Shown here one piece after another: positions 11,429 to 36,939 of a stretch of DNA of 64,000 nt. The stretch's first letter is position 1; each line of letters starts with the position of its first letter. The notes beneath the pieces were generated by a model. It did not search any database, was not told the DNA's origin, and saw only the letters and a list, made by a program, of their open reading frames with translations. Made by a program: the position numbers and the translations under genes. The DNA comes from an uncultured Actinomycetes bacterium (lineage in GTDB: Bacteria; Actinomycetota; Thermoleophilia; UBA2241). The stretch covers positions 68,341 to 132,340 of the forward strand of contig CAVYCN010000018.1 in the NCBI GenBank assembly GCA_963767005.1, written 5' to 3'.

Positions 11429-13102
11429 CTAGGCGGAGGCGCCCGGACCGCGCAGCACCGCGCCACCACGCGCCCCGGTGTGCGCGCCGTCCCACACGGC
11501 GGCCTCACCGTTCACGAAGACGTAGTCCATGCCCTCGGCGTAGCGATGCGGGATGTTCTCGAAGGGCGCCGTGTGCGGGTACGGGTTGGTGGCGCAGTCG
11601 TGCACGCGCTCGAGGTCGAAGACCAGCAGGTCGGCGCGCGCCCCCGGCCGCAGGATGCCGCGATCCCACAAGCCGAAGCGCTGGGCCGGCAGCGACGTCA
11701 TCTTGCGCACGGCCTCCTCGAGGCGCAGCACCTCGCGGTCGCGCACGAAGCGTTCGAGGATGCCGGGGTACTCGCCGAAGCTGCAGGGCCAGTACGCGGT
11801 CGCGTCGTCGGGCGCCGGCAGGGGCTGCACGAGGCCGTCGGAGCAGAACATGCTGAGCGGGTGCCGCGCCACGATCTCGACCTGTTCCGAGTCGATGTAC
11901 TCGAAGATGCCGACGATCTCGTCGCGCGATTCGACGATCAAGTCGAGGAACGTGTCGAAGGAGTCGGCGCCGCGCGCCGTGGCGATGTCGGCGACCGAGC
12001 GGCCGAGCAGCGTCTGGTCGGGTGCGCTCAGCACGACGACGCGCTCGAAGCGGCCGTGCCGCACGAGGCCGGCGTAGCCCGGGCCGGGCCGGTGGTCGTC
12101 GGCGGCGACCTCGCCACGCAGGGCCGCGCGCCGCCCGGGGTCGCGCAGCACGGCGACGAGCTCGTCGACGGCGAGGCTGTGCAGCGGCTGCGGCAGGCCC
12201 CGCGACAGGCGCGGCGCAAGCTCGGTGTGGACGTCGTTGTCGAGCGTGACGTCGAGCCCCGCGGCGCGCGCCCGCTCGATCGCGCCGAGGTTCTCGGCGG
12301 CCCGCGGCCCGCCCCACTTGGGCACGTTGTGCGAGACCTCGACCGGCAGGCCGGCCTCGCGACCGACCAGCAACGCCTCGTCGACGGCGGCGACGATCGT
12401 CTCGCGCTCGCCGCGCACGTGGCTCGTGTAGATGCCGTGGAAGGGCGCGACCACCCGTGCGAGCGCGACGATCTCGTCGGTCGACGAGTAGCAGCCCGGC
12501 GGGTAGACGAGGCCGGTCGACAGACCGTAAGCGCCGGCGGCCATGCTCGCCGCCAACAGGTCCTTCATGACGGCGAGCTCGCGCTCGCCGGCGGGGCGCT
12601 CGTCGAAGCCCATCACCGCCACGCGCAGCGCGCCGTGACCGACCAGCGCGGCGACGTTGATGCCGCAGCCGCCGGCCTCGACGCCGCCGAGATACTCGGC
12701 GAACGTGCGCCAGGTGATCGGCGGCACGTCGAAGTAGAACTCCCACATCTTCACGAGGTCGGCGACGTGGGCGTCGGCGACCGGGGCCGCCGACATGCCG
12801 CAGTTGCCCATGACGTGGGTCGTCACGCCCTGGTAGAGCGCCGACTCGGCGCCGGGGTCGGTGAGCACCGTGAAGTCGGAATGCGTGTGCGGGTCGACAA
12901 AGCCCGGCGTGACGTAGCGGCCGCCGGCGTCGATCACGCGGGGCGCGGGCCGGCCGGCGCGCGGCAGCGCGCCGGCCGGCCCCACCCGCGCCACCAGGCC
13001 GCCCTCGAGCAGCACGTCGGCCGCGACCCAGGGGTTGCCGGCGCCGTCGACCAGCCGACAGCCCGTGATCAGTACGCTGTCGGGGCCGGCCGGGACGCTC
13101 AT
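11429..13102 (-). CDS. N-acyl-D-amino-acid deacylase (D-aminoacylase, amidohydrolase superfamily)
   Basis: 'PGFVDPHTHSD', 'HVMGNCG' and 'SDGLV'. TAG stop. Confidence 0.85.
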   Translation of the reverse strand: MSVPAGPDSVLITGCRLVDGAGNPWVAADVLLEGGLVARVGPAGALPRAGRPAPRVIDAGGRYVTPGFVDPHTHSDFTVLTDPGAESALYQGVTTHVMGNCGMSAAPVADAHVADLVKMWEFYFDVPPITWRTFAEYLGGVEAGGCGINVAALVGHGALRVAVMGFDERPAGERELAVMKDLLAASMAAGAYGLSTGLVYPPGCYSSTDEIVALARVVAPFHGIYTSHVRGERETIVAAVDEALLVGREAGLPVEVSHNVPKWGGPRAAENLGAIERARAAGLDVTLDNDVHTELAPRLSRGLPQPLHSLAVDELVAVLRDPGRRAALRGEVAADDHRPGPGYAGLVRHGRFERVVVLSAPDQTLLGRSVADIATARGADSFDTFLDLIVESRDEIVGIFEYIDSEQVEIVARHPLSMFCSDGLVQPLPAPDDATAYWPCSFGEYPGILERFVRDREVLRLEEAVRKMTSLPAQRFGLWDRGILRPGARADLLVFDLERVHDCATNPYPHTAPFENIPHRYAEGMDYVFVNGEAAVWDGAHTGARGGAVLRGPGASA

Positions 13103-13141
13103 GGGCTCCTCCTGGTCGCGCGCGCGGGATCCCGCGCGCGC

Positions 13142-14305
13142 TCAGACGCCGTAGGCGGCGCGCACCAGTGCGAGATAGTCCTCGTAGCCGGCGTCGCGCG
13201 CATTGTCGGGCGAGCATACATGCTCAGCCGACAGCCGCGCGACCTGCTCGGCCTCGGCGTCGGACAGCGGCTGCAGCTCGCGCAGCGCCGGGATGCCGAT
13301 CTCGCGCATGAGGGCCCGCACCCGCTCGACGCCCGCGGCCGCCGCCGCCGCGTCGTCGCGGCCGCCGACCTCGACGCCGAGCGCCGCCGCGACACGCGCG
13401 TGCTTGACGGGATCGGCCGGCGCGTTGAACTCGAGCACGGCCGGCAGGAACACGGCGCAGGCCAGGCCGTGCGGCGTGTCGAACACGCCGCCCAGGCTCT
13501 CGCCCAGGCAGTGCACCGCTCCGACATCGGCGTTGCCGAACGCCATGCCGGCCAGCAGGCTGCCGAGCAGCATGTCGCTGCGCGCCGCGCGGTCGGTGCC
13601 ATCGGCGACGGCCCGCGGCAGGGCGCCGCCGACGAGGCCGATCGCGCGCAGTGCGAGGGCGTCGCTCACCGGGTTGGCGGCCTTGCAGGTGTAGGCCTCG
13701 ACCGCGTGGATCAGCGCGTCCATGCCGGTCGAGGCGGTGAGCGCGAGCGGCAGCGACGCGGTGAGCTCGGGGTCGAGCACGGCGACGCGCGGCGCGATGC
13801 GCGGGTCGAGGAGCGTCATCTTGTAGTGATGCTCCTCGTCGGTGATCACGGCGACCCAGGTGACCTCGCTACCGGTACCAGCTGTGGTCGGCACGGCGAG
13901 CAGCGGGATGGGCGGCTTCTCGGGCACCTTGGGGTCTTCCCAATCCTTCACGCGGCCGCCGTTCGTCACCAGGGTGGCGGCCGCCTTGGCGACGTCGATC
14001 GCGCTGCCCCCGCCGAGGCCGACGATGGCCCCGGCGCCGGCCGCGAGGGCCGCGTCGGCCGCCGCCCGGCACTCGGCGTCGCGCGGGTTCGACGAGATCG
14101 CCGAGAACACGGTGCACTCGCGACCGGCTGCCTTCACGATGCCGGCGACGCGGTCGGCCAGGCCCGCCGCGACGAGGCCGGCGTCGGTGATCAGCAGGAC
14201 GGCACCGTCCGACAGCGCCGCCGCTTCCTGGCCCACCTCGGCGACTCTGCCGGGTCCGAACACGATGCGGGTGGCAAGCTGGAAGCCGAAGGCGACATCG
14301 TCCAT
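13142..14305 (-). CDS. iron-containing alcohol dehydrogenase
   Basis: 'GLGGGSAIDVAKA' and 'GTGSEVT'. AAAGGAG Shine-Dalgarno before ATG 14305. Confidence 0.85.
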   Translation of the reverse strand: MDDVAFGFQLATRIVFGPGRVAEVGQEAAALSDGAVLLITDAGLVAAGLADRVAGIVKAAGRECTVFSAISSNPRDAECRAAADAALAAGAGAIVGLGGGSAIDVAKAAATLVTNGGRVKDWEDPKVPEKPPIPLLAVPTTAGTGSEVTWVAVITDEEHHYKMTLLDPRIAPRVAVLDPELTASLPLALTASTGMDALIHAVEAYTCKAANPVSDALALRAIGLVGGALPRAVADGTDRAARSDMLLGSLLAGMAFGNADVGAVHCLGESLGGVFDTPHGLACAVFLPAVLEFNAPADPVKHARVAAALGVEVGGRDDAAAAAAGVERVRALMREIGIPALRELQPLSDAEAEQVARLSAEHVCSPDNARDAGYEDYLALVRAAYGV

Positions 14306-27970: not shown

Positions 27971-29374
27971 CTAGCGAATGACCGGACGGCGACCGGCGAG
28001 CCCCGCCCGGAATCGCTCGACGGCCGGCAGGTGCAGGTCGAGCAGGTCGGCGATGTGCGCCTTGGCCTCGAGCGGGCTCGGGTCGTCGTAGTAGCTCGCC
28101 TCGGTCTCGAAGATGCGTCCGAGGCGCAGCTCACCGCGCAGCTCGTGCATGGCGGCGTTGTCGGACAGGTCGCGCGGCGCGACCCCGAGCCGGTCGGCCA
28201 CGTAGCGTTTGGCCTGCGTGATCCTCATGCCCTTCGCCATCTGCATCCGCGCCACCAGATCTCCGGCGGCGCGCAGTCCGTTCATGCCGGAGGCGCACGA
28301 GTGGGCGACGTCCATACCGAACGAGTCGCCCGTGCCCACCTACAAGCCGTCCAGGCGGAGCACGTCGACGCAGGCGCGCGACACCCGCGAGACGGCGTCG
28401 ACCGGCGCGAAGGCGGTCATCGGCACGCCGCCCACGCCCATGCCGACGTTCATGTGCACGGGTATCTCGGCGGCGGCCATGCAGGGCTTCACGAAGGTGA
28501 GGGCGCGAGCCACGTTCCAGGGCGTCGACCTGCTCGTGTTGGTGTTCACCGCCGGTCCGAACACCGTCGCGCCGGCCTGCTGCACCACCGCGAGCTGACC
28601 CGCTGGCTTGAGCCCCGCCAGGCGCGTGCCGCGATACTCGAGCCGGCCGTGGGTGCCGAGCACGATCTCGGCCGCCATGCCGACCATGATGCCCAGGTCG
28701 GGGTGCCGCTCCCGCAAGATCTCGACGGTGCGCAGGGTGGCCAGCAGGTCGGCGTCGCCGGCGGCGCCGGCGGTGTCGAAGTTCACACCGTCGGCGCCGG
28801 CGTCCCACATGGCCTCGGCCACGTAGACCATGTCGGCCACGGCAAGCTCGACCGCCTCTTCCTGGGCGGCGCGCGCCTCGTCGATGCGCACCTCGGGCAG
28901 GAGCTGCGCCCAGTTGCCGCAGGGTCCGTCGGGTTCCGAGTACCGGCCCAGGTCGGGCTGGGCGCCGTAGTGCACCGGCACCGTCAGCCGCTCCTGGGCC
29001 TCCTTCATGTACTGCTGCTCGAAGGGGACAACGGGCTTGACCGCCTTGTAGGAGTAGTCGATGTGGAACAGCTCGACGCTGTCGTGGGCGAGCACCTGCT
29101 CGTAGGCGTACAGGGCGTCGACCCTGCTGCCGAGCTGCGGCGTGCCGGTGCCATCCTTTGAGAGCACGACCTCGTCGCCCACATCGACCGCCGTGAAGCG
29201 CGCCTGCGACGCGAAGATGTCGAGCAGATGGTCGAGCTCACTGTCGTCGAGCGACGCCAGCTTGCCGCGGGTGGCGGCGGCCTGCGTGCCCGCGTCGAGC
29301 TCGACGCGGATGGCGCTCCGGGTCGCCTCGACGAGCGACCCGTCGCCCATCCGCATCGGGACCTGCCGTTCCAT
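27971..29374 (-). CDS. mtbB: dimethylamine:corrinoid methyltransferase-like protein (MtbB-like), copy 1, with an in-frame TAG at 28340-28342
   Basis: ORFs 28340-29383 and 27971-28339 are in the same frame, separated only by TAG. It has the 'RMGDG', 'HIDYSYK', '[11 protein letters not shown]', 'MGVGGVP' and '...LRLDGL-TAG-VGTGD...GDLVARMQ' blocks. GGAGGTG Shine-Dalgarno before ATG 29374. Confidence 0.75.
28340..28342 (-). other. in-frame amber codon (candidate pyrrolysine) in mtbB-like copy 1
   Basis: Plus strand reads 'cta'. The reading frame continues on both sides. Confidence 0.7.
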
Positions 29375-29462
29375 CAACGTCACCTCCGCGGCGCCGTCGC
29401 CCCCCTGGCGTCGGTCCCGGGGATGCTATCGCAGTCGCAGGCAAAGCGGCAACGCGCCTTCA

Positions 29463-29519
29463 GGCAAGAAGCGAGGCGGGGGCGGCGCCTTCGGCGCCGC
29501 CCCCGCCTCGCTTCTTGCC
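29463..29519 (-). terminator. 27-bp perfect-stem GC hairpin downstream of mtbB copy 2 (no U-tract)
   Basis: 'ggcaagaagcgaggcgggggcggcgcc ttc ggcgccgcccccgcctcgcttcttgcc'. Confidence 0.45.
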
Positions 29520-29550
29520 GTCGCCGGTCTGACCGCCGCGCCGCGGCCTT

Positions 29551-30936
29551 TTACAACCCGACGCGCTGCTTGAAGCGCTCGACGCTGTTGATCGTGATGT
29601 CGAGCGCCTTGGCGATGTTGAACTTGGCCTCGATCATGCCGGCGTCGCCGGGACGCACCGCGGAGGTGTGAGGCAGGCACCCCAGCCCCTTCTCGATGCG
29701 GATCTGCTCCATGGCGATCGGGTCGGACAGGTCGCGTACGCCGCAGCCGAGCTTGTCGGCGACGTAGGCCTTGGCTTCACTCAGGCGCATCCTTCGGGTC
29801 ATCTGCATGCGTGCCACGAGATCTCCCGCGGTCCGCATTCCGCCCATGCCCGAAGCCTGCGAATGGGCAGACTCCATGCCCATGGCATCGCCCGTGCCCA
29901 CCTAGTAGCCGTCGATCTTGAGGATCTCGACGAAGGCCTTGGAGGCACGCGACGTGGCATCGGCCGGCGGATAGACGCAGGTCGGCACGCCGCCCACACC
30001 CATGCCCACGTTGACGTGCACCGGGATCTCGGCGATCTCGGCGGCCGGCTTGATGAAGGTCATCGCCCGGGCGATGTTCCAGGCGGTCGACTTGCCTGTG
30101 TTGATGTTGACGGCGGGGCCGTAGATCGAGGCGCCCGCGGCCTGCACCATGCGCACCTGGTCCTTGGGCCACATGCCGGCCAGACGCTCGCCGTCGAACT
30201 CGAGCTGGCCGTGCATGCCGAGCACGAACTCGCTCGCCATGCCGATCTCGATGCCGAGCCACGGGTATCTGTCGCGTAGCATGCGGCAAGCGGTGAGGCC
30301 GGCGAGAAAGTCGGCGTCGCCGGCCGCGCCGGTCGTGTCCATGTCGATGCCGTCGGCGCCGGCTTCGATCATGTGGTCGGCGACGAAGTTGATGTCGTTG
30401 ACCAGCATGTCGCAGGCCTCGAGCTGCGCGGCGCGGGCCTCGTCGACCTTCATGAGCGGCAGCAGCTCGGACCAGTTGTCGATCGGCCCGTCGGGCTTCG
30501 AGTAGCGGCCGAGGTCGGGCATCGCCCCGTACTGCACCGGGTTCGTGCAGAGCATCTGGGCGATCTTCATCGACTGGCCCTCGTGGGCCACGTTGGTCTT
30601 GACCGCCTTGTACGAGTAGTCGATCTGCCAGAGCTCGATCATGTCGATGCCGACGACCTGCTCGTAGGTCTGCAGGTCCTGCACCCGGTTACCGATGTGC
30701 TTGGTGCCGGTGCCGTCGTTGCTCATGACGACCTCGTCGCCGATGTCGACGGCGGTGAAGCGGGCCGACGAGGCATAGATGTCGAGCAGGTGGTCGAGCT
30801 CGTCCTGATTGAGCGGGTCGACCTTGGCCCGTTTGGCGGCCTGTTGCGTGCCGTCCTCGAGGTCGGCCTTGATCTCGGAGCGCGTCATATCGACGAGCGC
30901 GCCGTCTCCCATGCGCGTTGCGATCTTGGGTTCCAA
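29551..30936 (-). CDS. mtbB: MtbB-like dimethylamine methyltransferase, copy 2, with an in-frame TAG at 29902-29904
   Basis: Same architecture as copy 1: '...ILKIDGY-TAG-VGTGDAMGMES...GDLVARMQ'. TTG start 6 nt after a GGAGGTG Shine-Dalgarno gives 'MEPKIATRMGDG'. TAA stop. Confidence 0.75.
29902..29904 (-). other. in-frame amber codon (candidate pyrrolysine) in mtbB-like copy 2
   Basis: Plus strand 'cta'. ORFs 29902-30951 and 29551-29901 share a frame. Confidence 0.7.
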
Positions 30937-31232
30937 GCGCATCACCTCCACGTGCGCACGTTCGCGGGGACCGGCCGCCGGTAGCGACCGGGACCGGATC
31001 GGACTCGGATGTGCCCCGGGTCTGGGTCACGAAGGGCCACACCGGGAGCCGTCGGCCCATGGTATATCGGCCCTCCCACCGTCCGCCACCCGGGGCACCC
31101 AGGGGCCCGAGCGCGGCACGCCGAGACCGGGACGCTCGCTCTCACCCCGAGTCGCGCCGCATCACCCCCCCTCGCGGCGGTACGACCAGGGGCGCGGCAT
31201 CACCCCACGGCGCGCCGGCGTCTCGCGCATGC

Positions 31233-31634
31233 TCAAAGCCCCTCGAGATCGAACCGTTCGTCGATGGCGAGGCAGTGGCCGACCCCCAGCCGCCGTGCGA
31301 CCAGGAAGGTCGCGCAGTCCACGAGCGACGGCTGCCGTTCGGCGCCTGCCGTGTTCAGCTCACCGATCAGTCGCTCGACGGCGAGCTCGTGCTCGACGGG
31401 TCGGACCCACTCGACATCGAACGCCGGGAGAAGATCGCGCAGGAACGTCGTCACCGCTGCCACGCCCAGACGGCGTCTGAGCACATCGACGGTCTCGAGC
31501 GCGACGTAGTTGGTGACGATGAGCCGGTCGGCCGCATCGAGCTCGTAGGCGAACATGTGCCGCGTCAGCTCGTGCTCAGGATGGCGACCGTCCAGGAGCG
31601 CGACGAGCGCCGTCGTGTCGATCAGAGTCGCCAC
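31233..31634 (-). CDS. vapC: PIN-domain toxin (VapC)
   Basis: 'VATLIDTTALVALLD...IVTNYVALETV...VDCATFLVARRLG'. GTG start 1 nt after the vapB TGA. Confidence 0.75.
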   Translation of the reverse strand: MATLIDTTALVALLDGRHPEHELTRHMFAYELDAADRLIVTNYVALETVDVLRRRLGVAAVTTFLRDLLPAFDVEWVRPVEHELAVERLIGELNTAGAERQPSLVDCATFLVARRLGVGHCLAIDERFDLEGL

Positions 31635-31635
31635 G

Positions 31636-32088
31636 TCACTCGTCGTCGCGCGGGTTGTCGAGCCAGTACCGAGGCGCTCTCCGCTCGCCGGGATCACTGC
31701 CGCGCTGCGCATTGTTCCCAGGCGCCGGACCGGCCGCCGTGTCGAACCCGGCACCGGCCGCCATGTCGAACCCTGCACCGGCCGCCATGTCGAACGCTGG
31801 GTCGGGTGCGGGGCCGGGCGTCGTGCCCGGACCAGGCTCGACGTCATCGACGACGGCCAGCGCGCGCCGCCGGACGAGACGGACGAGCGACTCAGACCGC
31901 GCTACCTGGATGTCGAGAGCGTGCCGCACGTAGCCCGCCAGGGAGAGACCATCGAGCCTCGCCCGTTCCCGGACGGCGTCGAACTGCTCTTCATAGAGCT
32001 GCACGGTCACGCGGATCAAAGGCTGACCTCGCAGGTCGCGGAGAGACCGCGGTGCCGTGCCGATGCGCGAGGCCAGCCCGTCGCGCAC
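31636..32088 (-). CDS. vapB: ribbon-helix-helix antitoxin (VapB/CopG-like) with a repeat-containing C-terminus
   Basis: 'IRVTVQLYEEQFDAVRERARLDGLSLAGYVRHAL'. The C-terminus carries 'AFDMAAGAGFDMAAGAGFDTAAG'. Confidence 0.65.
   Translation of the reverse strand: MRDGLASRIGTAPRSLRDLRGQPLIRVTVQLYEEQFDAVRERARLDGLSLAGYVRHALDIQVARSESLVRLVRRRALAVVDDVEPGPGTTPGPAPDPAFDMAAGAGFDMAAGAGFDTAAGPAPGNNAQRGSDPGERRAPRYWLDNPRDDE
31729..31800. repeat. 24-bp x 3 tandem repeat inside vapB
   Basis: Three tandem copies of 'ccggccgccrtgtcgaacccbgca'. Confidence 0.7.
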
Positions 32089-32111
32089 GGGAGGTACGGG
32101 AGTGTGGGTGT

Positions 32112-32160
32112 GTGTGGTGCCATCATGCCATCACTTTCTGCTGGCATGATGGCACCACAC
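32112..32160. repeat. perfect 19-bp inverted repeat with an 11-nt loop in a locally AT-richer spot
   Basis: 'gtgtggtgccatcatgcca tcactttctgc tggcatgatggcaccacac'. Confidence 0.7.
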
Positions 32161-32267
32161 ACCCTCGGGGTCCCGCGGCTCGAGTGGGCCACGGGCTCAC
32201 ATTTGACGCGGGAACGAGGTCACGGAGCGCAGCTGGAGCGGTTGACGAAGGAGTGGGTGCGGTCACG

Positions 32268-32411
32268 GCGACGCGATCCTCGGGCGACGCGATCCTCGGG
32301 CGGCGCGGTTCTCGGGCGGCGCGGTCCTCGGGCGGCGCGGTCGTCAGGCGGCGCGGTCCTCGGGCGGCGCGGTCGTCAGGCGGCGCGGTCGTCAGGCGGC
32401 GCGGCGGGCGG
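32268..32411. repeat. 16-bp x 9 tandem minisatellite (gcgrcgcggtcctcgg variants)
   Basis: Head-to-tail units with no spacers. It overlaps the last codons of the 2-hydroxyacid dehydrogenase gene. Confidence 0.75.
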
Positions 32412-33417
32412 TCGCGTCGGCGGCGTCGGGCGCTATGCGGATCTCGTTGACGAGTGGGCGACCGGCCTCGAAGTCGGCGGCGTTCGCGAGCGTCGTCGTC
32501 GCGATCTGCTCGAGCGCCTCGCTCGTGAAGTAACCCTGGTGCGCCGTGATCACCACGTTGGGGAACGTGAGCAGGCGACTGAAGACGTCGTCCTGGATGA
32601 TCTGACCCGACAGGTCGCGCGAGAAGAGCTCCGTCTCCTCTTCGTAGACGTCGAGACCGAGCGCGCCGATGTGGCCCGACTTCAGCCCCGCGATCACGGC
32701 GCGCGAGTCGACGAGGCCGCCGCGGCTCGTGTTGACGAGCATGACGCCGCGCTTCATCAGCGCGATGGCGTCGCGGTCGATCAGGTGGGTGGTCTCCGGC
32801 AGCAGCGGGCAGTGCAGCGTGACGATGTCAGAGGCGGCGAGCAGCTCGGCCAGCGACACGTAGGTGACGCCCATCTCGCGGGCGCGCTCGCTCGGGAACG
32901 GGTCGTAGCCCAGCAGGACGCAGCCGAAGCCGCGCAGGATGCCGGCCGTCGTGGCACCGATGATGCCCGTGCCGACGATGCCGACGGTGCGACCGTTGAG
33001 GTCGAAGCCCAGCAGGCCGTCGAGCGAGAAGTTGCCGTCGCGGACGCGCTGGTAGGCGCGATGGATCTTGCGGTTCAGCGCGAGGATGAGCGTGACGGTG
33101 TGCTCCGCTACGGCGTGCGGCGAGTAGGCCGGCACGCGCACGACGCGCAGGCCCAGGGCGGACGCGGCCGCGAGGTCGACGTTGTTGAAGCCCGCCGAAC
33201 GCAGGGCGACGAGCGTCGTTCCGCCCGCGGCGAGCGTCGCGAGCGTCTCGCCGCCGAGCTCGTCGTTGACGAAGACGGACACGCCGGGGAACCCGGCCGC
33301 AAGCGGAGCCGTGTCGGCGGTGAGCCGCGCCTCGAAGAACACGAGCTCATGAGCGAAGCTCGCGTTGGCCGCGGTCAGGAACTCACGGTCGTACCGCCTG
33401 GCGGAGAAGACTGCGAT
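32392..33417 (-). CDS. D-isomer-specific 2-hydroxyacid dehydrogenase (D-lactate dehydrogenase-like)
   Basis: Aligns along its whole length with LdhA: '[15 protein letters not shown]...[15 protein letters not shown]...GIVGTGIIG...NTSRGGLVD...HQGYFT'. No canonical start codon at the aligned N-terminus; the nearest is ATC 33417, with a GTG 45 codons upstream. Confidence 0.65.
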
Positions 33418-33548
33418 GCGCGTGGCGTCCTCGCTGGAGTCGGGCTTGCGTCCGACCCCACGGTTCCCCGCCAGGAGCAGGACAAACGCAATCGTCGCGG
33501 CGAGGCGCGATCGTCGCGACGAGGCGCGCCGCGATAGGGCGATGAGGT

Positions 33549-33590
33549 CGGCGGTGGGCGGGCGCCCATACGGGCGCCCGCCCACCGCCG
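33549..33590 (-). terminator. 19-bp perfect-stem GC hairpin immediately downstream of mtbB copy 3
   Basis: 'cggcggtgggcgggcgccc atac gggcgcccgcccaccgccg'. No U-tract. Confidence 0.45.
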
Positions 33591-33593
33591 CGA

Positions 33594-35000
33594 TCAGCGT
33601 CCGACGGGGTGCTTGCGGCCGGCCATCTCGCGGAAGCGCTCCACGCAGTTGACCGGCACGTCGAGCACGGCCGCGATGTTGAACTTGGCCTCGATCCCCA
33701 TGGGGTCGCCGACGTCGGTGATCTCGCCCGACTCGAGGATGCCGCCGAGGCCGTGCTCCTTGCGCACGTCGAGCATGACCGTCGGGTCGGAGAGGTCGAT
33801 CGTCGAGACGCCCAGCCGGTCGGCCACGTACCGCTTGGCCTCGACGAGCCGCATCCCTCGGGTGATCTGCATCCGGGCCACCAGATCTCCAGCAGTCCGG
33901 ATCCCGCCCATCCCCGAGGCGACGCCGTGGCTCACAGCCTGGCCGTACACGTCGCCCGCGCCCACCTACAAGCCATCCAGGCGCAGGATGTCGACCGCGG
34001 CGCGCGAGGCCCGGCAGGTGGCGTCGCCGGCCGGGGTGACGTGCATCGGCACGCCGCCCACCCCCATGCCGCCGTTCAGGTGCACCGGCACGGTCGCCTC
34101 GTCGCAGCACGGCTTGGCGATGGTCAGCGTGCGCGCCACGTTCCAGGCGATCGACCTGCCGGTGTTCACGTTGATCGCCGGGCCGAAGATGGTGACGCCG
34201 GCCTTGGCGGCCACCTTCATCTGCTCGCGCGGCCACAGGCCGGCGAGGCGCACGCCGTCGTACTCGAGCTCGCCGTGCATGCCGAGCACGAACTCGCCGG
34301 CCATGCCGATCTGGATGCCCACCGTCGGGTGCGCGGCGCGGATGCGCTCGACCGCCTTGAGCGTGGCGAGGAAGTCGGCGTCGCCGGCCGCGCCGGCCGT
34401 GTCGAGGTCGATGAACTCGGCGCCGGCTTCGATCAGCTCGTCGGCCACGAAGCAGATGTCGTCGACCGCGAGCTCGACCGCCTGTTCCTGGGCCGCGCGA
34501 GCTTCGTCGATGCGACCGAGCGGCAGAAGCTGCGACCAGTTCGGCACCGGACCGTCGGGCACGGTGTAGAGGCCGAGGTCGGGCATGGCGCCGTAGCCGA
34601 GCGGCGCCGTGGTCACGAACTGCGCCTGGCGCATCATGACCTGCTCGAAGGCCGTGACCCCCTTCGCCGGCTTGTAGGAGTAGTCGTGGTGGTAGAGCTC
34701 GAGCGAGTCGGCGCAGAGGTACTGCTCGTAGTACTGCAGGTCGTTGATGCGCGTGCCGAGGTCCTGGCTGCCGCAGCCGTCGAAGGACAGCACGACCTCG
34801 TCGCCGATGTCGACGCCGGTGAACCGGCTGTTCGAGCAGAAGATGTCGGCGAGGTGGGCGAGCTCGTCGGCGCCCAGCTCGGGACTCTTGCTGCGCTTGG
34901 CGCCGGCCTGCGTGCCGGCCTCGAGGTCGGCGCGGATCTGCGACGGCGTCATCTCGACGAGCGCGCCGTCGCCCATGCGCGTGCGGATCGTGGGTTCCAT
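33594..35000 (-). CDS. mtbB: MtbB-like dimethylamine methyltransferase, copy 3, with an in-frame TAG at 33966-33968
   Basis: '[12 protein letters not shown]' after a GAGGTGA Shine-Dalgarno. '...[21 protein letters not shown]...GDLVARMQ'. TGA stop. Confidence 0.75.
33966..33968 (-). other. in-frame amber codon (candidate pyrrolysine) in mtbB-like copy 3
   Basis: Plus strand 'cta'. ORFs 33966-35000 and 33594-33965 share a frame. Confidence 0.7.
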
Positions 35001-35430: not shown

Positions 35431-36939
35431 ATGCCTGAAATCCAAATGGCGACCGAGAAAGCCAAACTCACCAAGACCCTACGTCGGTGGGACATGGCGC
35501 TGTTCACCGCCTGCGCCATCATCGGGTTCGACTCGCTCGCCTACACCACCTCGGTCGGGCTGGGCCAGGCCATCACCTGGCTGATCATCACCTTCTTCAT
35601 CTTCCTCATCCCGTTCGGCCTGCTCACCGCCGAGGTCAGCACCGCCTTCCCGGCCGAGGGTGGCGTCTACGCCTGGTGCCGCATGGCGTTCGGCAAGCTC
35701 TTCGGCGAGCTCGCCACCATGATGTACTGGCTGTCGAACGCGATCTGGCTGGGCGGCACGCTGACCGCCGTCACGATCGGTGTCATCGATGTCTTCTTCA
35801 CGCCCAAACACCTGCTCGGCACCGCCGCGTCGATCGTCGTCGGCCTCGTTTTCACCTGGGTGACCATCTTCTTGTCGGTGATCAACCTCAAGTACGGCAA
35901 GTGGACGGGCAACCTGGGCACCTTCTTCAAGGCCATCATCATGGTGGTGATGGCGGTACTCGGCATCCTCTTCCTGGTTCGCCACGGCATCCCCAAGGGG
36001 ATCGCCCCGGCGAGCTCGTACACGCCCAGCATCACAGGCTTCCTCGCCGTCATCGGCGTCATCGTCTTCCTGTGGGTCGGCTTCGAGCTCCAGGGCTCGG
36101 CCAGCGAGGAGATGGTCAATCCGCAGAAGGACGTGCCGCGCTCGATTCTCAGCTCCGGCGCCATCACGACCGCCATGTACGTCGTTGTCATGCTCTGCAT
36201 GCTCCTCGTGCTGAAGGAGAAGGACCTCACCGCAGCGTCCGGCATCCCCGCCGCGGTGCAGGCCGTCATGGCCGACGCGGTGGGTAGCGGCACGGCCAAG
36301 GCGATCGGCTATTTCCTCGGCGTCATCTTCATCCTGCAGTACCTGAGCTCGGCGTCGGTGTGGACCCTGGGTTCGGCCCGCGTGCAGGCAGTGGCCTCGC
36401 TCGACGGCTCGGCCCCGCGCATGCTCGGCAAGTTCTCCAAGCAGGGCACCCCGCTCGCGATGTGCGTCCTCATGGGCATCGTCGGCTCGATCATGTGCTT
36501 CATCGTGTTCCTCGTGACGAGCGGCAGCCTGCACAGCTTCATCGTCGTGATGATCGCCCTCGACACCTCGCTCACGGTGGTCGTCTACGTCTTCCTGATC
36601 CCGGCGATGGTGCGTCTGCGCACCACGCACGCGCACGTCCATCGGCCGTTCATCGTGCCGGGCGGCGCGGTCGGCCTGTGGGCCTGCGCGGCCATCACTT
36701 GGATCCTCTCCGTCATCACCTGCATCACCCTGCTGTGGCCGGGCCTCATCAACAACATGCTCGGCCAGAGCTTCTCGATCACGGACTACGAGGGCATGTC
36801 CCGGCTGCGGTTCGAGCTCATGGACCTCGGCACGTTCGTCGTCCTCATGATCATTGGCGTGGGCTTCTGGGCCTACGGTCGTACACAGGGCACGGTCTCC
36901 GAAGACGCCGTCATCGAGGGCGTCGTCGAGGAGTCCTGA
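35431..36939 (+). CDS. APC-superfamily amino acid/amine permease
   Basis: 12-TMS profile. AAGGGGAGG Shine-Dalgarno before the ATG. It is preceded by a 180-nt leader of lower GC. Confidence 0.8.
   Translation: MPEIQMATEKAKLTKTLRRWDMALFTACAIIGFDSLAYTTSVGLGQAITWLIITFFIFLIPFGLLTAEVSTAFPAEGGVYAWCRMAFGKLFGELATMMYWLSNAIWLGGTLTAVTIGVIDVFFTPKHLLGTAASIVVGLVFTWVTIFLSVINLKYGKWTGNLGTFFKAIIMVVMAVLGILFLVRHGIPKGIAPASSYTPSITGFLAVIGVIVFLWVGFELQGSASEEMVNPQKDVPRSILSSGAITTAMYVVVMLCMLLVLKEKDLTAASGIPAAVQAVMADAVGSGTAKAIGYFLGVIFILQYLSSASVWTLGSARVQAVASLDGSAPRMLGKFSKQGTPLAMCVLMGIVGSIMCFIVFLVTSGSLHSFIVVMIALDTSLTVVVYVFLIPAMVRLRTTHAHVHRPFIVPGGAVGLWACAAITWILSVITCITLLWPGLINNMLGQSFSITDYEGMSRLRFELMDLGTFVVLMIIGVGFWAYGRTQGTVSEDAVIEGVVEES

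Follow-up and report, generated by a model that had tools for sequence, protein, structure and literature searches.

TAG-GTG junctions in three mtbB genes of an uncultured Thermoleophilia bacterium: almost certainly pyrrolysine codons, followed by the codon of a conserved valine

The window analysed here, a 64-kb stretch of Thermoleophilia-like actinomycetotal DNA (71% GC) from an uncultured soil bacterium, carries three mtbB genes on the minus strand, each with one in-frame TAG (Table 1). To assign proteins to MtbB, we used the curated equivalog cutoff of profile TIGR02368 (369.1 bits). When the parts on both sides of the TAG are joined, the predicted proteins of copies 1, 2 and 3 reach 423.7, 421.9 and 400.0 bits, respectively, each in a single alignment over profile positions 5-465 (5-464 for copy 1). 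Only the joined proteins pass the cutoff, the separate halves of all three copies being below it (e.g. 313 and 92 bits for copy 1). In all three, the TAG corresponds to profile position 356, the N-terminal parts stop at position 354 or 355, the C-terminal parts begin at position 357, and the frame stays open for 116-123 codons past the TAG. Judged from these profile scores, the three genes belong to the MtbB family, i.e. dimethylamine:corrinoid methyltransferases (TIGR02368/PF09505). They are paralogues with 56-60% mutual amino acid identity. A sequence comparison with the PDB returned no chain matching MtbB. In the gene calling of the source assembly, each of the three copies is cut in two at the TAG.

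Table 1. Positions of the mtbB genes, their in-frame TAG codons and the associated RNA matches in the window
Feature	Position	Strand	Details
mtbB copy 1	27971..29374	-	344 codons before UAG, 122 codons after it
Copy 1 start codon (ATG)	29372-29374	-	GGAGGTGA before start
Copy 1 in-frame TAG	28340-28342	-	followed by GTG (Val) 28337-28339
Copy 1 terminal TAG	27971-27973	-	
Copy 1 Rfam PYLIS_2 (RF02509)	28243..28342	-	73.3 bits; 3' hairpin 28252-28269
mtbB copy 2	29551..30936	-	116 codons after UAG; ends in TAA
Copy 2 start codon (TTG)	30936	-	strong Shine-Dalgarno; longest ORF begins at GTG 30951
Copy 2 in-frame TAG	29902-29904	-	followed by GTG 29899-29901
Copy 2 Rfam PYLIS_2	29805..29904	-	54.8 bits; 3' hairpin 29814-29831
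mtbB copy 3	33594..35000	-	344 codons before UAG, 123 codons after it; ends in TGA
Copy 3 start codon (ATG)	35000	-	
Copy 3 in-frame TAG	33966-33968	-	followed by GTG 33963-33965
Copy 3 Rfam PYLIS_2	33869..33968	-	50.6 bits; 3' hairpin 33878-33895

An earlier sequence-only reading of this DNA had noted that the three TAG codons are each directly followed by GTG GGC, and this is true at all three minus-strand positions. The longer motif that it gave, GTG GGC (A/C)CG GGC GAC, holds for its first two codons, while the third codon is in fact (A/G)CG and the fifth is GAT in copy 2: the junctions read TAG GTG GGC ACG GGC GAC in copy 1, TAG GTG GGC ACG GGC GAT in copy 2 and TAG GTG GGC GCG GGC GAC in copy 3. 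As it also reported, the ORF caller opens a new ORF at each GTG (122, 116 and 123 aa). The 18-nt junction motif occurs three times in the window for 0.02 expected occurrences, but this excess is due to the paralogy of the three copies and provides no independent signal. GTG represents 46% of the valine codons in the genes of the window, which gives a probability of about 0.10 of finding it after the TAG in three copies out of three. The presence of GTG in all three copies is thus within chance.

We then compared these genes with 116 non-redundant mtbB copies from 68 loci of related Thermoleophilia and Actinomycetota genomes. The internal codon is TAG in all 116 copies, and the following codon is GTG (60 copies), GTC (32), GCG (10), GTA (8), ATC (4) or GTT (2). 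In comparison, the terminal stops of the 88 intact family copies are TGA (53), TAG (28) and TAA (7). The TAG is kept in all orthologues of copy 1 (next codon GTG 13, GTC 11, GCG 2, GTA 1), as well as in those of copy 2 (GTG 7, GCG 5, GTA 3, GTT 1) and of copy 3 (GTG 5, GTA 1, GTT 1). The nearest orthologue of copy 1, found in a sister MAG (locus L002), reads TAG GCG, and a bog_752 MAG (L005) possesses orthologues of all three copies, with 82-93% amino acid identity and the TAG kept. At the protein level, the UAG is followed by (V/I/A)-G-x-G-D throughout the family (116/116 relatives). The suggestion of a conserved valine after pyrrolysine (Pyl) is therefore borne out by a family motif in which GTG, GTC, GTA and GTT are synonymous wobble variants, the residue sometimes being Ala or Ile. 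GTG after each TAG is almost certainly the codon of this conserved valine and not a restart signal.

Frame and contiguity across the TAG are preserved in every intact family copy, and the C-terminal parts remain in frame and of constant length in comparison with the sister MAG L002 and others. The dN/dS ratios of mtbB range from 0.06 to 0.30 for the N-terminal parts and from 0.11 to 0.36 for the C-terminal parts, values indicating that both halves are under purifying selection. A comparison with non-Pyl variants, as the sequence-only reading had proposed, found no intact MtbB with a sense codon at this position among the 116 copies. Only two TAG-less copies were detected and both are decayed, one being a truncated and frameshifted fragment (L038) and the other being broken over three frames (L067).

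Next, we looked for the Pyl machinery. No homologue of pylT, pylS, pylB, pylC, pylD or mtbC was found in the 64-kb window, and ARAGORN detected tRNA-Pyl neither there nor in loci L001-L067. This absence from the window was the sole basis for the earlier premise of a non-Pyl organism. The lineage itself has the full Pyl machinery: a complete pyl cassette (pylSc, pylSn, pylB, pylC, pylD and tRNA-Pyl(CUA)) occurs in relatives (L068-70, L084), and the MAG JAAZAR01 carries both a pyl cassette (L084) and two intact TAG-containing mtbB genes (L016). Using tblastn with Desulfitobacterium hafniense PylSc (100% identical to PDB 3DSQ) as query, we found pylS adjoining mtbB in one locus only (L035), in which some 270 nt separate pylSc from an intact mtbB on the same contig. 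In relatives, an MtbC-type gene (TIGR02370 scores of 223-225 bits for its protein, for a cutoff of 215.3) adjoins pylSc and, at other mtbB paralogues, lies about 2 kb downstream. None of the PylS clusters P0182, P0201, P0238, P0183 and P0145 comes from the sample of the window (ERZ25039480) or from the sister MAG CAVXDR01; P0160 belongs to an unrelated MAG, and P0232 is the only same-MAG match, with JAAZAR01. From these relatives and from the selection acting on the mtbB genes, we infer that a pyl cassette lies elsewhere in the host genome.

Copies 1-3 very probably encode full-length MtbB in which UAG is read as Pyl and GTG as valine, and the three in-frame TAGs themselves are almost certainly ordinary Pyl codons. 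Each gene would yield one MtbB of about 466-470 residues, with Pyl inserted at the UAG by a Pyl-tRNA(CUA) charged by a split PylSc/PylSn synthetase. The amino acid would be made by PylB, PylC and PylD, encoded elsewhere in the genome, and the GTG would specify the valine of the motif Pyl-(V/I/A)-G-x-G-D. TAG is also an ordinary terminal stop in 9 of the 31 genes of the window (29%), and copy 1 itself ends in TAG, where read-through would add 124 codons. Decoding of UAG therefore cannot be unconditional. The codon would be ambiguous, with competition between Pyl-tRNA and release factor 1 expected as in other Pyl organisms, so that some truncated product is probably made; the yield of full-length MtbB would be set by the expression of the pyl genes.

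The sequence-only reading had also raised the possibility of a split gene, in which UAG is a stop and translation restarts at the adjacent GUG, with subunits of about 344 and 120 aa forming a Pyl-free enzyme. The GTG abuts the TAG at all three junctions of the window, an arrangement typical of translational coupling, and the window is devoid of pyl genes. However, a GTG at three junctions out of three is not significant (p ~0.1), and in 56 of the 116 family copies, including that of L002, the TAG is followed by a codon other than a start codon (GTC, GCG, GTA, GTT or ATC). In the copies without GTG, the first start-capable in-frame codon is usually codon 9, at which initiation would lose the conserved GxGD. 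Translational coupling does not always need a Shine-Dalgarno (SD) sequence. The pairing energies before the GTG of copies 1, 2 and 3 (-5.5, -2.1 and -5.5 kcal/mol) lie between the 28th and 75th percentiles of a background of 524 internal GTG codons and are far weaker than those at the real starts of the three genes (-13.8, -13.6 and -9.9 kcal/mol), in agreement with the earlier remark that no SD is obvious before the TAGs. In addition, a plain terminator should drift to TGA, which accounts for 60-68% of stops here, whereas the internal stop never departs from TAG, and all intact copies are contiguous and in frame. With a next codon that varies, no SD, an invariant TAG and the Pyl machinery in the lineage, a stop followed by a restart at GTG is extremely improbable. 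Two variants of this idea were also rejected: an SD-like role of TAGGTGG is at odds with the GTC and GCG variants, which show that the motif is not conserved, and a restart at the Met found eight codons further on would remove GxGD from the product and meets a Gln at that position in genes of the copy 3 type.

The lack of pyl genes in the window would also suit relics, i.e. genes truncated at the TAG after loss of Pyl decoding, with an N-terminal fragment that works alone or with pseudogenes in decay. TAG is frequent as a genuine stop in the host genome, and decayed mtbB copies do exist in relatives. However, the C-terminal parts show purifying selection (dN/dS 0.11-0.36) and a constant frame and length against L002 and others, copies 1-3 are all intact and each has a strong SD before its start codon, and the truly decayed relatives are frameshifted and have lost the TAG, unlike copies 1-3. 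We consider relics to be very unlikely. Insertion of a standard amino acid at the UAG, by a suppressor tRNA or by near-cognate decoding, is formally allowed since pylT and pylS are absent from the window, but nothing specific speaks for it. The relatives have tRNA-Pyl(CUA) and PylS, sometimes adjoining mtbB, neither the window nor the loci surrounding the mtbB relatives showed any other type of tRNA with a CUA anticodon, and the chemistry of the family needs Pyl (PMC2933860, PMC9842639). Such read-through is hardly credible here.

All three copies also match the Rfam family PYLIS_2 above its gathering score (36 bits), each match beginning at the UAG (model positions 1-3 = TAG). In the Rfam consensus, the UAG precedes aUa GGu guc GGc Gac, and the scores of copies 1-3 are largely driven by conserved coding sequence. 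For the 5' hairpin of the model (positions 7-38), most pairs are canonical in less than 60% of 102 sequences, and copy 2 has many non-pairs. Pairing in the 3' hairpin (74-80/85-91) reaches 93%, with covariation at synonymous sites. This conserved 7-bp hairpin, 74-91 nt past every UAG, with the loop AGAY and an invariant loop codon GGA, is the one curiosity of an otherwise ordinary case. According to reviews, mtbB shows nothing PYLIS-like. That the hairpin is a functional cis-element, a genuine "PYLIS" by which bacterial mtbB tunes the decoding of its UAG or the fate of its mRNA, is conceivable but rather unlikely.

The genes of the window resemble MtbB1-3 of Methanosarcina barkeri, for which Pyl at the UAG position was established by mass spectrometry and methylation of the corrinoid protein from dimethylamine has likewise been demonstrated (PMC2933860), in scoring above the equivalog cutoff, in having one in-frame UAG at the homologous position, in occurring as several paralogues per genome, and in the (I/V)-G-x-G-D motif after Pyl and the PYLIS_2 match past the UAG. 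They differ in being bacterial, in the deep divergence of the paralogues, in the GUG after the UAG (AUA in the Rfam consensus), in the absence of an adjacent mtbC from the window and in the frequency of TAG as an ordinary stop. As in the bacterial Pyl systems of D. hafniense, Acetohalobium arabaticum, Bilophila and the delta-proteobacterial symbiont of Olavius, relatives in the lineage have split PylSc and PylSn, pylBCD and tRNA-Pyl(CUA), the Pyl clients are methylamine methyltransferases, and UAG is also a normal stop elsewhere. The gene order is different: the usual one in Firmicutes is pylT-Sc-B-C-D-Sn (PMC2933860), whereas in this lineage an amidase gene overlaps pylSc, an mtbC-like gene in convergent orientation comes next, pylSn lies apart, and pylB-pylC-pylD-pylT occupy the opposite strand, pylT being located downstream of pylD.

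How an organism can keep such an enzyme without Pyl is shown by the non-Pyl members of the MttB superfamily, e.g. the glycine betaine methyltransferase MtgB. These are likewise corrinoid-dependent methyltransferases related to a Pyl enzyme, but they belong to the MttB and not to the MtbB family, and a sense codon takes the place of their UAG, whereas the UAG is strictly retained in the MtbB copies. Actinobacterial terms are absent from a 2024 PylRS review, and in our literature search on Pyl with Thermoleophilia, Actinobacteriota or Actinomycetota, only one relevant paper was found (PMC10805028). This paper reports the expression of Pyl-encoding mttB/mtbB in Stordalen Mire Actinobacteriota, including the genus Bog-752, i.e. 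the same lineage and genes as here, L005 being a bog_752 MAG. In it, Pyl was deduced from truncation at the amber codon alone, and codon context, the pyl cassette and the restart alternative were outside its analysis.

The mechanism is therefore a known one, of which these mtbB genes are new members, and the TAG-GTG finding is largely ordinary: such a junction is what a Pyl codon with a conserved valine after it normally looks like when the genome is rich in GC. ORF callers will invariably cut these genes at the UAG. In the database, each of the best 120 relatives is an N-terminal fragment of about 344 aa, so that the Pyl genes of Thermoleophilia are systematically mis-called. A large group of uncultured soil and peat actinobacteria, hardly mentioned in Pyl reviews, possesses the complete Pyl machinery together with several mtbB paralogues of old origin. 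This wider context is of modest interest and bears on the identity of the methylamine consumers in soils and peat.

In each of the three mtbB genes (dimethylamine methyltransferase; copies 1 to 3) of the window, an N-terminal ORF of ~344 codons ends at a TAG, and the frame runs on directly from there as a second ORF of 116-123 codons starting with GTG GGC. The GC content of the window is 71%. Within a metagenome contig of 240,844 bp (ENA ERZ25039480 contig_6431), one segment matches the window at 99.9% identity, with three small indels (~20 nt in total) within 18340-39354. The sequence-only reading had given the junction as TAG GTG GGC (A/C)CG GGC GAC in every copy. The GTG GGC after the TAG holds in all three; it is followed by (A/G)CG, however, and copy 2 has GAT instead of GAC. 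We used the NCBIfam model TIGR02368 ([dimethylamine--corrinoid protein] Co-methyltransferase; curated cutoff 369.1 bits) as a family reference. The portions before the TAG (N-parts) cover positions 5-355 of this profile and those after it (C-parts) positions 357-465, and the TAG therefore corresponds to position 356. When joined with an X at the TAG, copies 1, 2 and 3 score 423.7, 421.9 and 400.0 bits, each in one single stretch, while no half alone passes the cutoff in any copy. Each of the 120 best relatives of copy 1 in the database is stored as an N-terminal fragment of ~344 amino acids (73% coverage). In public protein collections, gene callers have thus systematically cut the pyrrolysine (Pyl)-type mtbB genes of this lineage in two.

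Features of the window and of loci from related genomes (L-numbers)
Feature	Location	Strand	Details
mtbB copy 1	27971-29374	minus	TAG GTG GGC ACG GGC GAC
mtbB copy 2	29551-30936	minus	TAG GTG GGC ACG GGC GAT
mtbB copy 3	33594-35000	minus	TAG GTG GGC GCG GGC GAC
3' hairpin	28252-28269, 29814-29831, 33878-33895	minus	same position in 102 related sequences
APC-family permease	35431-36939	plus	divergent from copy 3
Tandem repeat	31725-31795		24-nt unit x 3; within a PIN-domain/antitoxin-like gene pair between copies 2 and 3
Tandem repeat	32267-32404		16-nt unit x 8.6; overlaps 3' end of 2-hydroxyacid dehydrogenase gene (stop 32392-32394)
Tandem repeat	33487-33528		19-nt unit x 2.2
TAG-less mtbB	L038 1746-2328	minus	truncated, frameshifted fragment, residues 205-399; 6-nt deletion takes TAG and next codon
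TAG-less mtbB	L067 3724-4966, 1931-3291		TCG instead of TAG; gene broken over three frames
pyl locus	L084 6925-15961; L068-L070 8913-18187; L035 11671-13676		unusual layout
Three assemblies of one locus	L068 17122-18187, L069 15873-17115, L070 15062-17847
MtbC-type gene	L084 8952-9584		adjoins pylSc
MtbC-type gene	L040, L041, L044, L046, L049, L059, L066, ~12,950-13,670		~2 kb downstream of other mtbB paralogues
pylSc	L084		TIGR02367, 319.7 bits (cutoff 178.15)
MtbC-type corrinoid protein	L084		TIGR02370, 225.4 bits (cutoff 215.3)
pylSn	L084		TIGR03912, 126.7 bits (cutoff 51.15)
pylD	L084		TIGR03911, 212.1 bits (cutoff 150.05)
pylC	L084		TIGR03909, 336.9 bits (cutoff 248.3)
pylB	L084		TIGR03910, 444.4 bits (cutoff 348.2)
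tRNA-Pyl (CUA)	L084		called by ARAGORN

Two readings of the GTG had been put forward from the sequence, a restart codon in a split gene or a conserved Val after Pyl. The restart draws on the presence of GTG in all three copies, but GTG makes up 46% of Val codons, and three out of three is expected by chance with p ~0.10. The Rfam model PYLIS_2 (RF02509, "Pyrrolysine insertion sequence mtbB"), which takes the Pyl-encoding UAG of known mtbB genes as its first codon, has a match at each of the three sites, and in each its UAG aligns with the TAG of the window (73, 55 and 51 bits; gathering score 36). Beyond the UAG its consensus runs aUa GGu guc GGc Gac, and (I/V)-G-x-G-D after Pyl is therefore a family feature. 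Most of its seed genes have AUA (Ile) directly after the UAG, a codon that cannot serve as a start. To this we added a scan of GTDB representative genomes, which gave 66 loci, nearly all from Thermoleophilia/Actinomycetota MAGs sampled in Danish soils (Microflora Danica) or at Stordalen Mire. With the window, these loci contain 116 mtbB copies after removal of redundancy, and each of the 116 has TAG as its internal codon, followed by GTG (60), GTC (32), GCG (Ala; 10), GTA (8), ATC (Ile; 4) or GTT (2). L002, the nearest orthologue of copy 1 (C-part ~95% identical), has TAG GCG. In copies with a non-start codon after the TAG, in-frame initiation usually becomes possible only at codon 9, and a product begun there would be without the conserved GxGD motif.

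Initiation signals point the same way. We compared the 20 nt 5' of each post-TAG GTG with the anti-Shine-Dalgarno (anti-SD) sequence, using 524 internal in-frame GTG codons as background. Pairing energies are -5.5, -2.1 and -5.5 kcal/mol for copies 1, 2 and 3 (28th, 75th and 28th percentiles of the background), and for the true starts of the three genes, which carry sites of the GGAGGTGA type, the values are -13.8, -13.6 and -9.9. The earlier remark that no SD element is obvious before the TAGs is thus borne out. Terminal stops of the 88 intact copies are TGA (53), TAG (28) and TAA (7), and those of the ordinary genes of the window TGA (21), TAG (9) and TAA (1); a mere terminator at the internal site would drift mostly to TGA. 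Real stops drift even inside orthologue groups, whereas the internal TAG is strictly kept across paralogues that, among the three copies, are only 56-60% identical, and it is therefore read as a codon. Both halves are under purifying selection relative to their orthologues (dN/dS in N-parts, 0.06-0.30; in C-parts, 0.11-0.36). Only two mtbB copies are TAG-less (L038 and L067), both degraded. The MAG containing L067 is labelled as a delta proteobacterium and that of L065 as Thorarchaeota; both loci may be mis-binned actinobacterial contigs. With a family-wide motif, a TAG that is always kept and a variable next codon, a conserved Val after Pyl is supported, and a split gene with a GTG restart is not.

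The nucleotide right after the UAG is a purine (G or A) in all copies. Amber suppression is classically more efficient before a purine; the observation fits this rule, but a V/I/A residue requires a purine equally. GTA is ~6-fold enriched after the UAG (8 of 102 Val codons vs. 1.5% in the genes of the window; window and L002-L072), and post-UAG codons ending in a purine are favoured overall, the Rfam consensus there being AUA. This bias may reflect a context effect on UAG decoding.

The 5' hairpin of PYLIS_2 is poorly kept in this lineage. Its 3' hairpin is kept at 74-80/85-91 after the UAG (7 bp, loop AGAY), as already predicted within a larger structure by Have et al. 2013 (PMC3639795). Two synonymous third-position pairs (types CG/GC/UG/UA and CG/UG/GC) are 98% canonical, vs. 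68-72% expected for independent columns. The Gly codon of the loop is GGA in 102 out of 102 sequences, a codon used for 6.1% of the Gly residues of these genes. Among 70 distinct sequences, 93% of cells are paired vs. 86% in shuffles (0/500 reach it; slid controls, 26-51%), and 26 cells are changed on both sides vs. 5 expected (0/500), statistics that are inflated by sequence relatedness. From its distance to the UAG, the hairpin is probably too far for the action of a classical read-through stimulator.

We then looked for the decoding machinery. No tRNA-Pyl, pylS, pylB, pylC, pylD or corrinoid protein was found in the 64-kb window, nor, despite the three mtbB genes, any methylcorrinoid:acceptor methyltransferase or activase. 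The suggestion of a "non-Pyl organism" had only this absence from the window behind it and fails for the lineage, which has the full pyl machinery. In L035 (Thermoleophilia MAG MFD00032.bin.2.59), the catalytic subunit of PylS (314 bits with TIGR02367; cutoff 178) is encoded ~270 nt from an intact mtbB whose TAG precedes GTC. PylSc relatives with >70% identity fall into no fewer than 120 database clusters, and for some of these the NCBI name is Thermoleophilia or Actinobacteria pyrrolysine--tRNA(Pyl) ligase large subunit. The whole cassette lies inside ~9 kb in L068-L070 and L084; scores were taken from L084, where all genes are unfragmented. The tRNA-Pyl of the lineage (GGGGGGTCGATCGAAAGGATCAGCGTGGGCTCTAAACCCACGTAGGCGGGTGTGACTCCCGCACTCCCCGCCA) folds into a compact cloverleaf, as expected. 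The same MAG, JAAZAR01 (GCA_012514235.1), carries this cassette (L084, contig 71) and two intact TAG-containing mtbB genes (L016, contig 40). Given these relatives and three intact, selected genes keeping the TAG, the genome of the window probably carries a pyl cassette too.

At the pyl locus, pylSc and the gene of a peptidoglycan amidase share 4 nt, and a convergent mtbC-like gene and then a radical-SAM gene come next. pylSn stands alone, pylB-pylC-pylD are on the opposite strand with tRNA-Pyl downstream of pylD, and the flanks (PmbA/TldD, OsmC, BacA) are conserved. pylB and pylC are frameshift-fragmented in some L068-L070 assemblies and intact in at least one other, a pattern more like indel errors of long reads than decay, and a reason for caution when calling pseudogenes in these MAGs. 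In the window, the APC-family permease could be a candidate substrate transporter.

The UAG would be decoded by Pyl-tRNA(CUA) in competition with RF1, giving one single polypeptide, and the Val codon would have no role in initiation. Although the lineage decodes UAG as Pyl, TAG does not seem to be avoided by the genes of the window and accounts for 29% of their stops (9/31). Copy 1 itself ends in TAG (27971-27973), where read-through would add 124 codons antisense to the neighbouring aldolase gene. UAG decoding must therefore be incomplete or depend on conditions, as it does in other bacteria that use Pyl. No dedicated mechanism for Pyl insertion is known, UAG being ambiguous between stop and Pyl (PMC12626013, PMC2933860). 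The M. barkeri genes mtbB1-3 likewise have one in-frame amber codon each, with the frame conserved on either side. For Actinobacteriota of Stordalen Mire, expression of Pyl-encoding mttB and mtbB has been reported, Bog-752 being among the most active genera (PMC10805028), and L005, from a bog_752 MAG, holds orthologues of all three window copies. The three genes are new Pyl-type members of mtbB, and expression of such genes had already been reported for their actinobacterial lineage.
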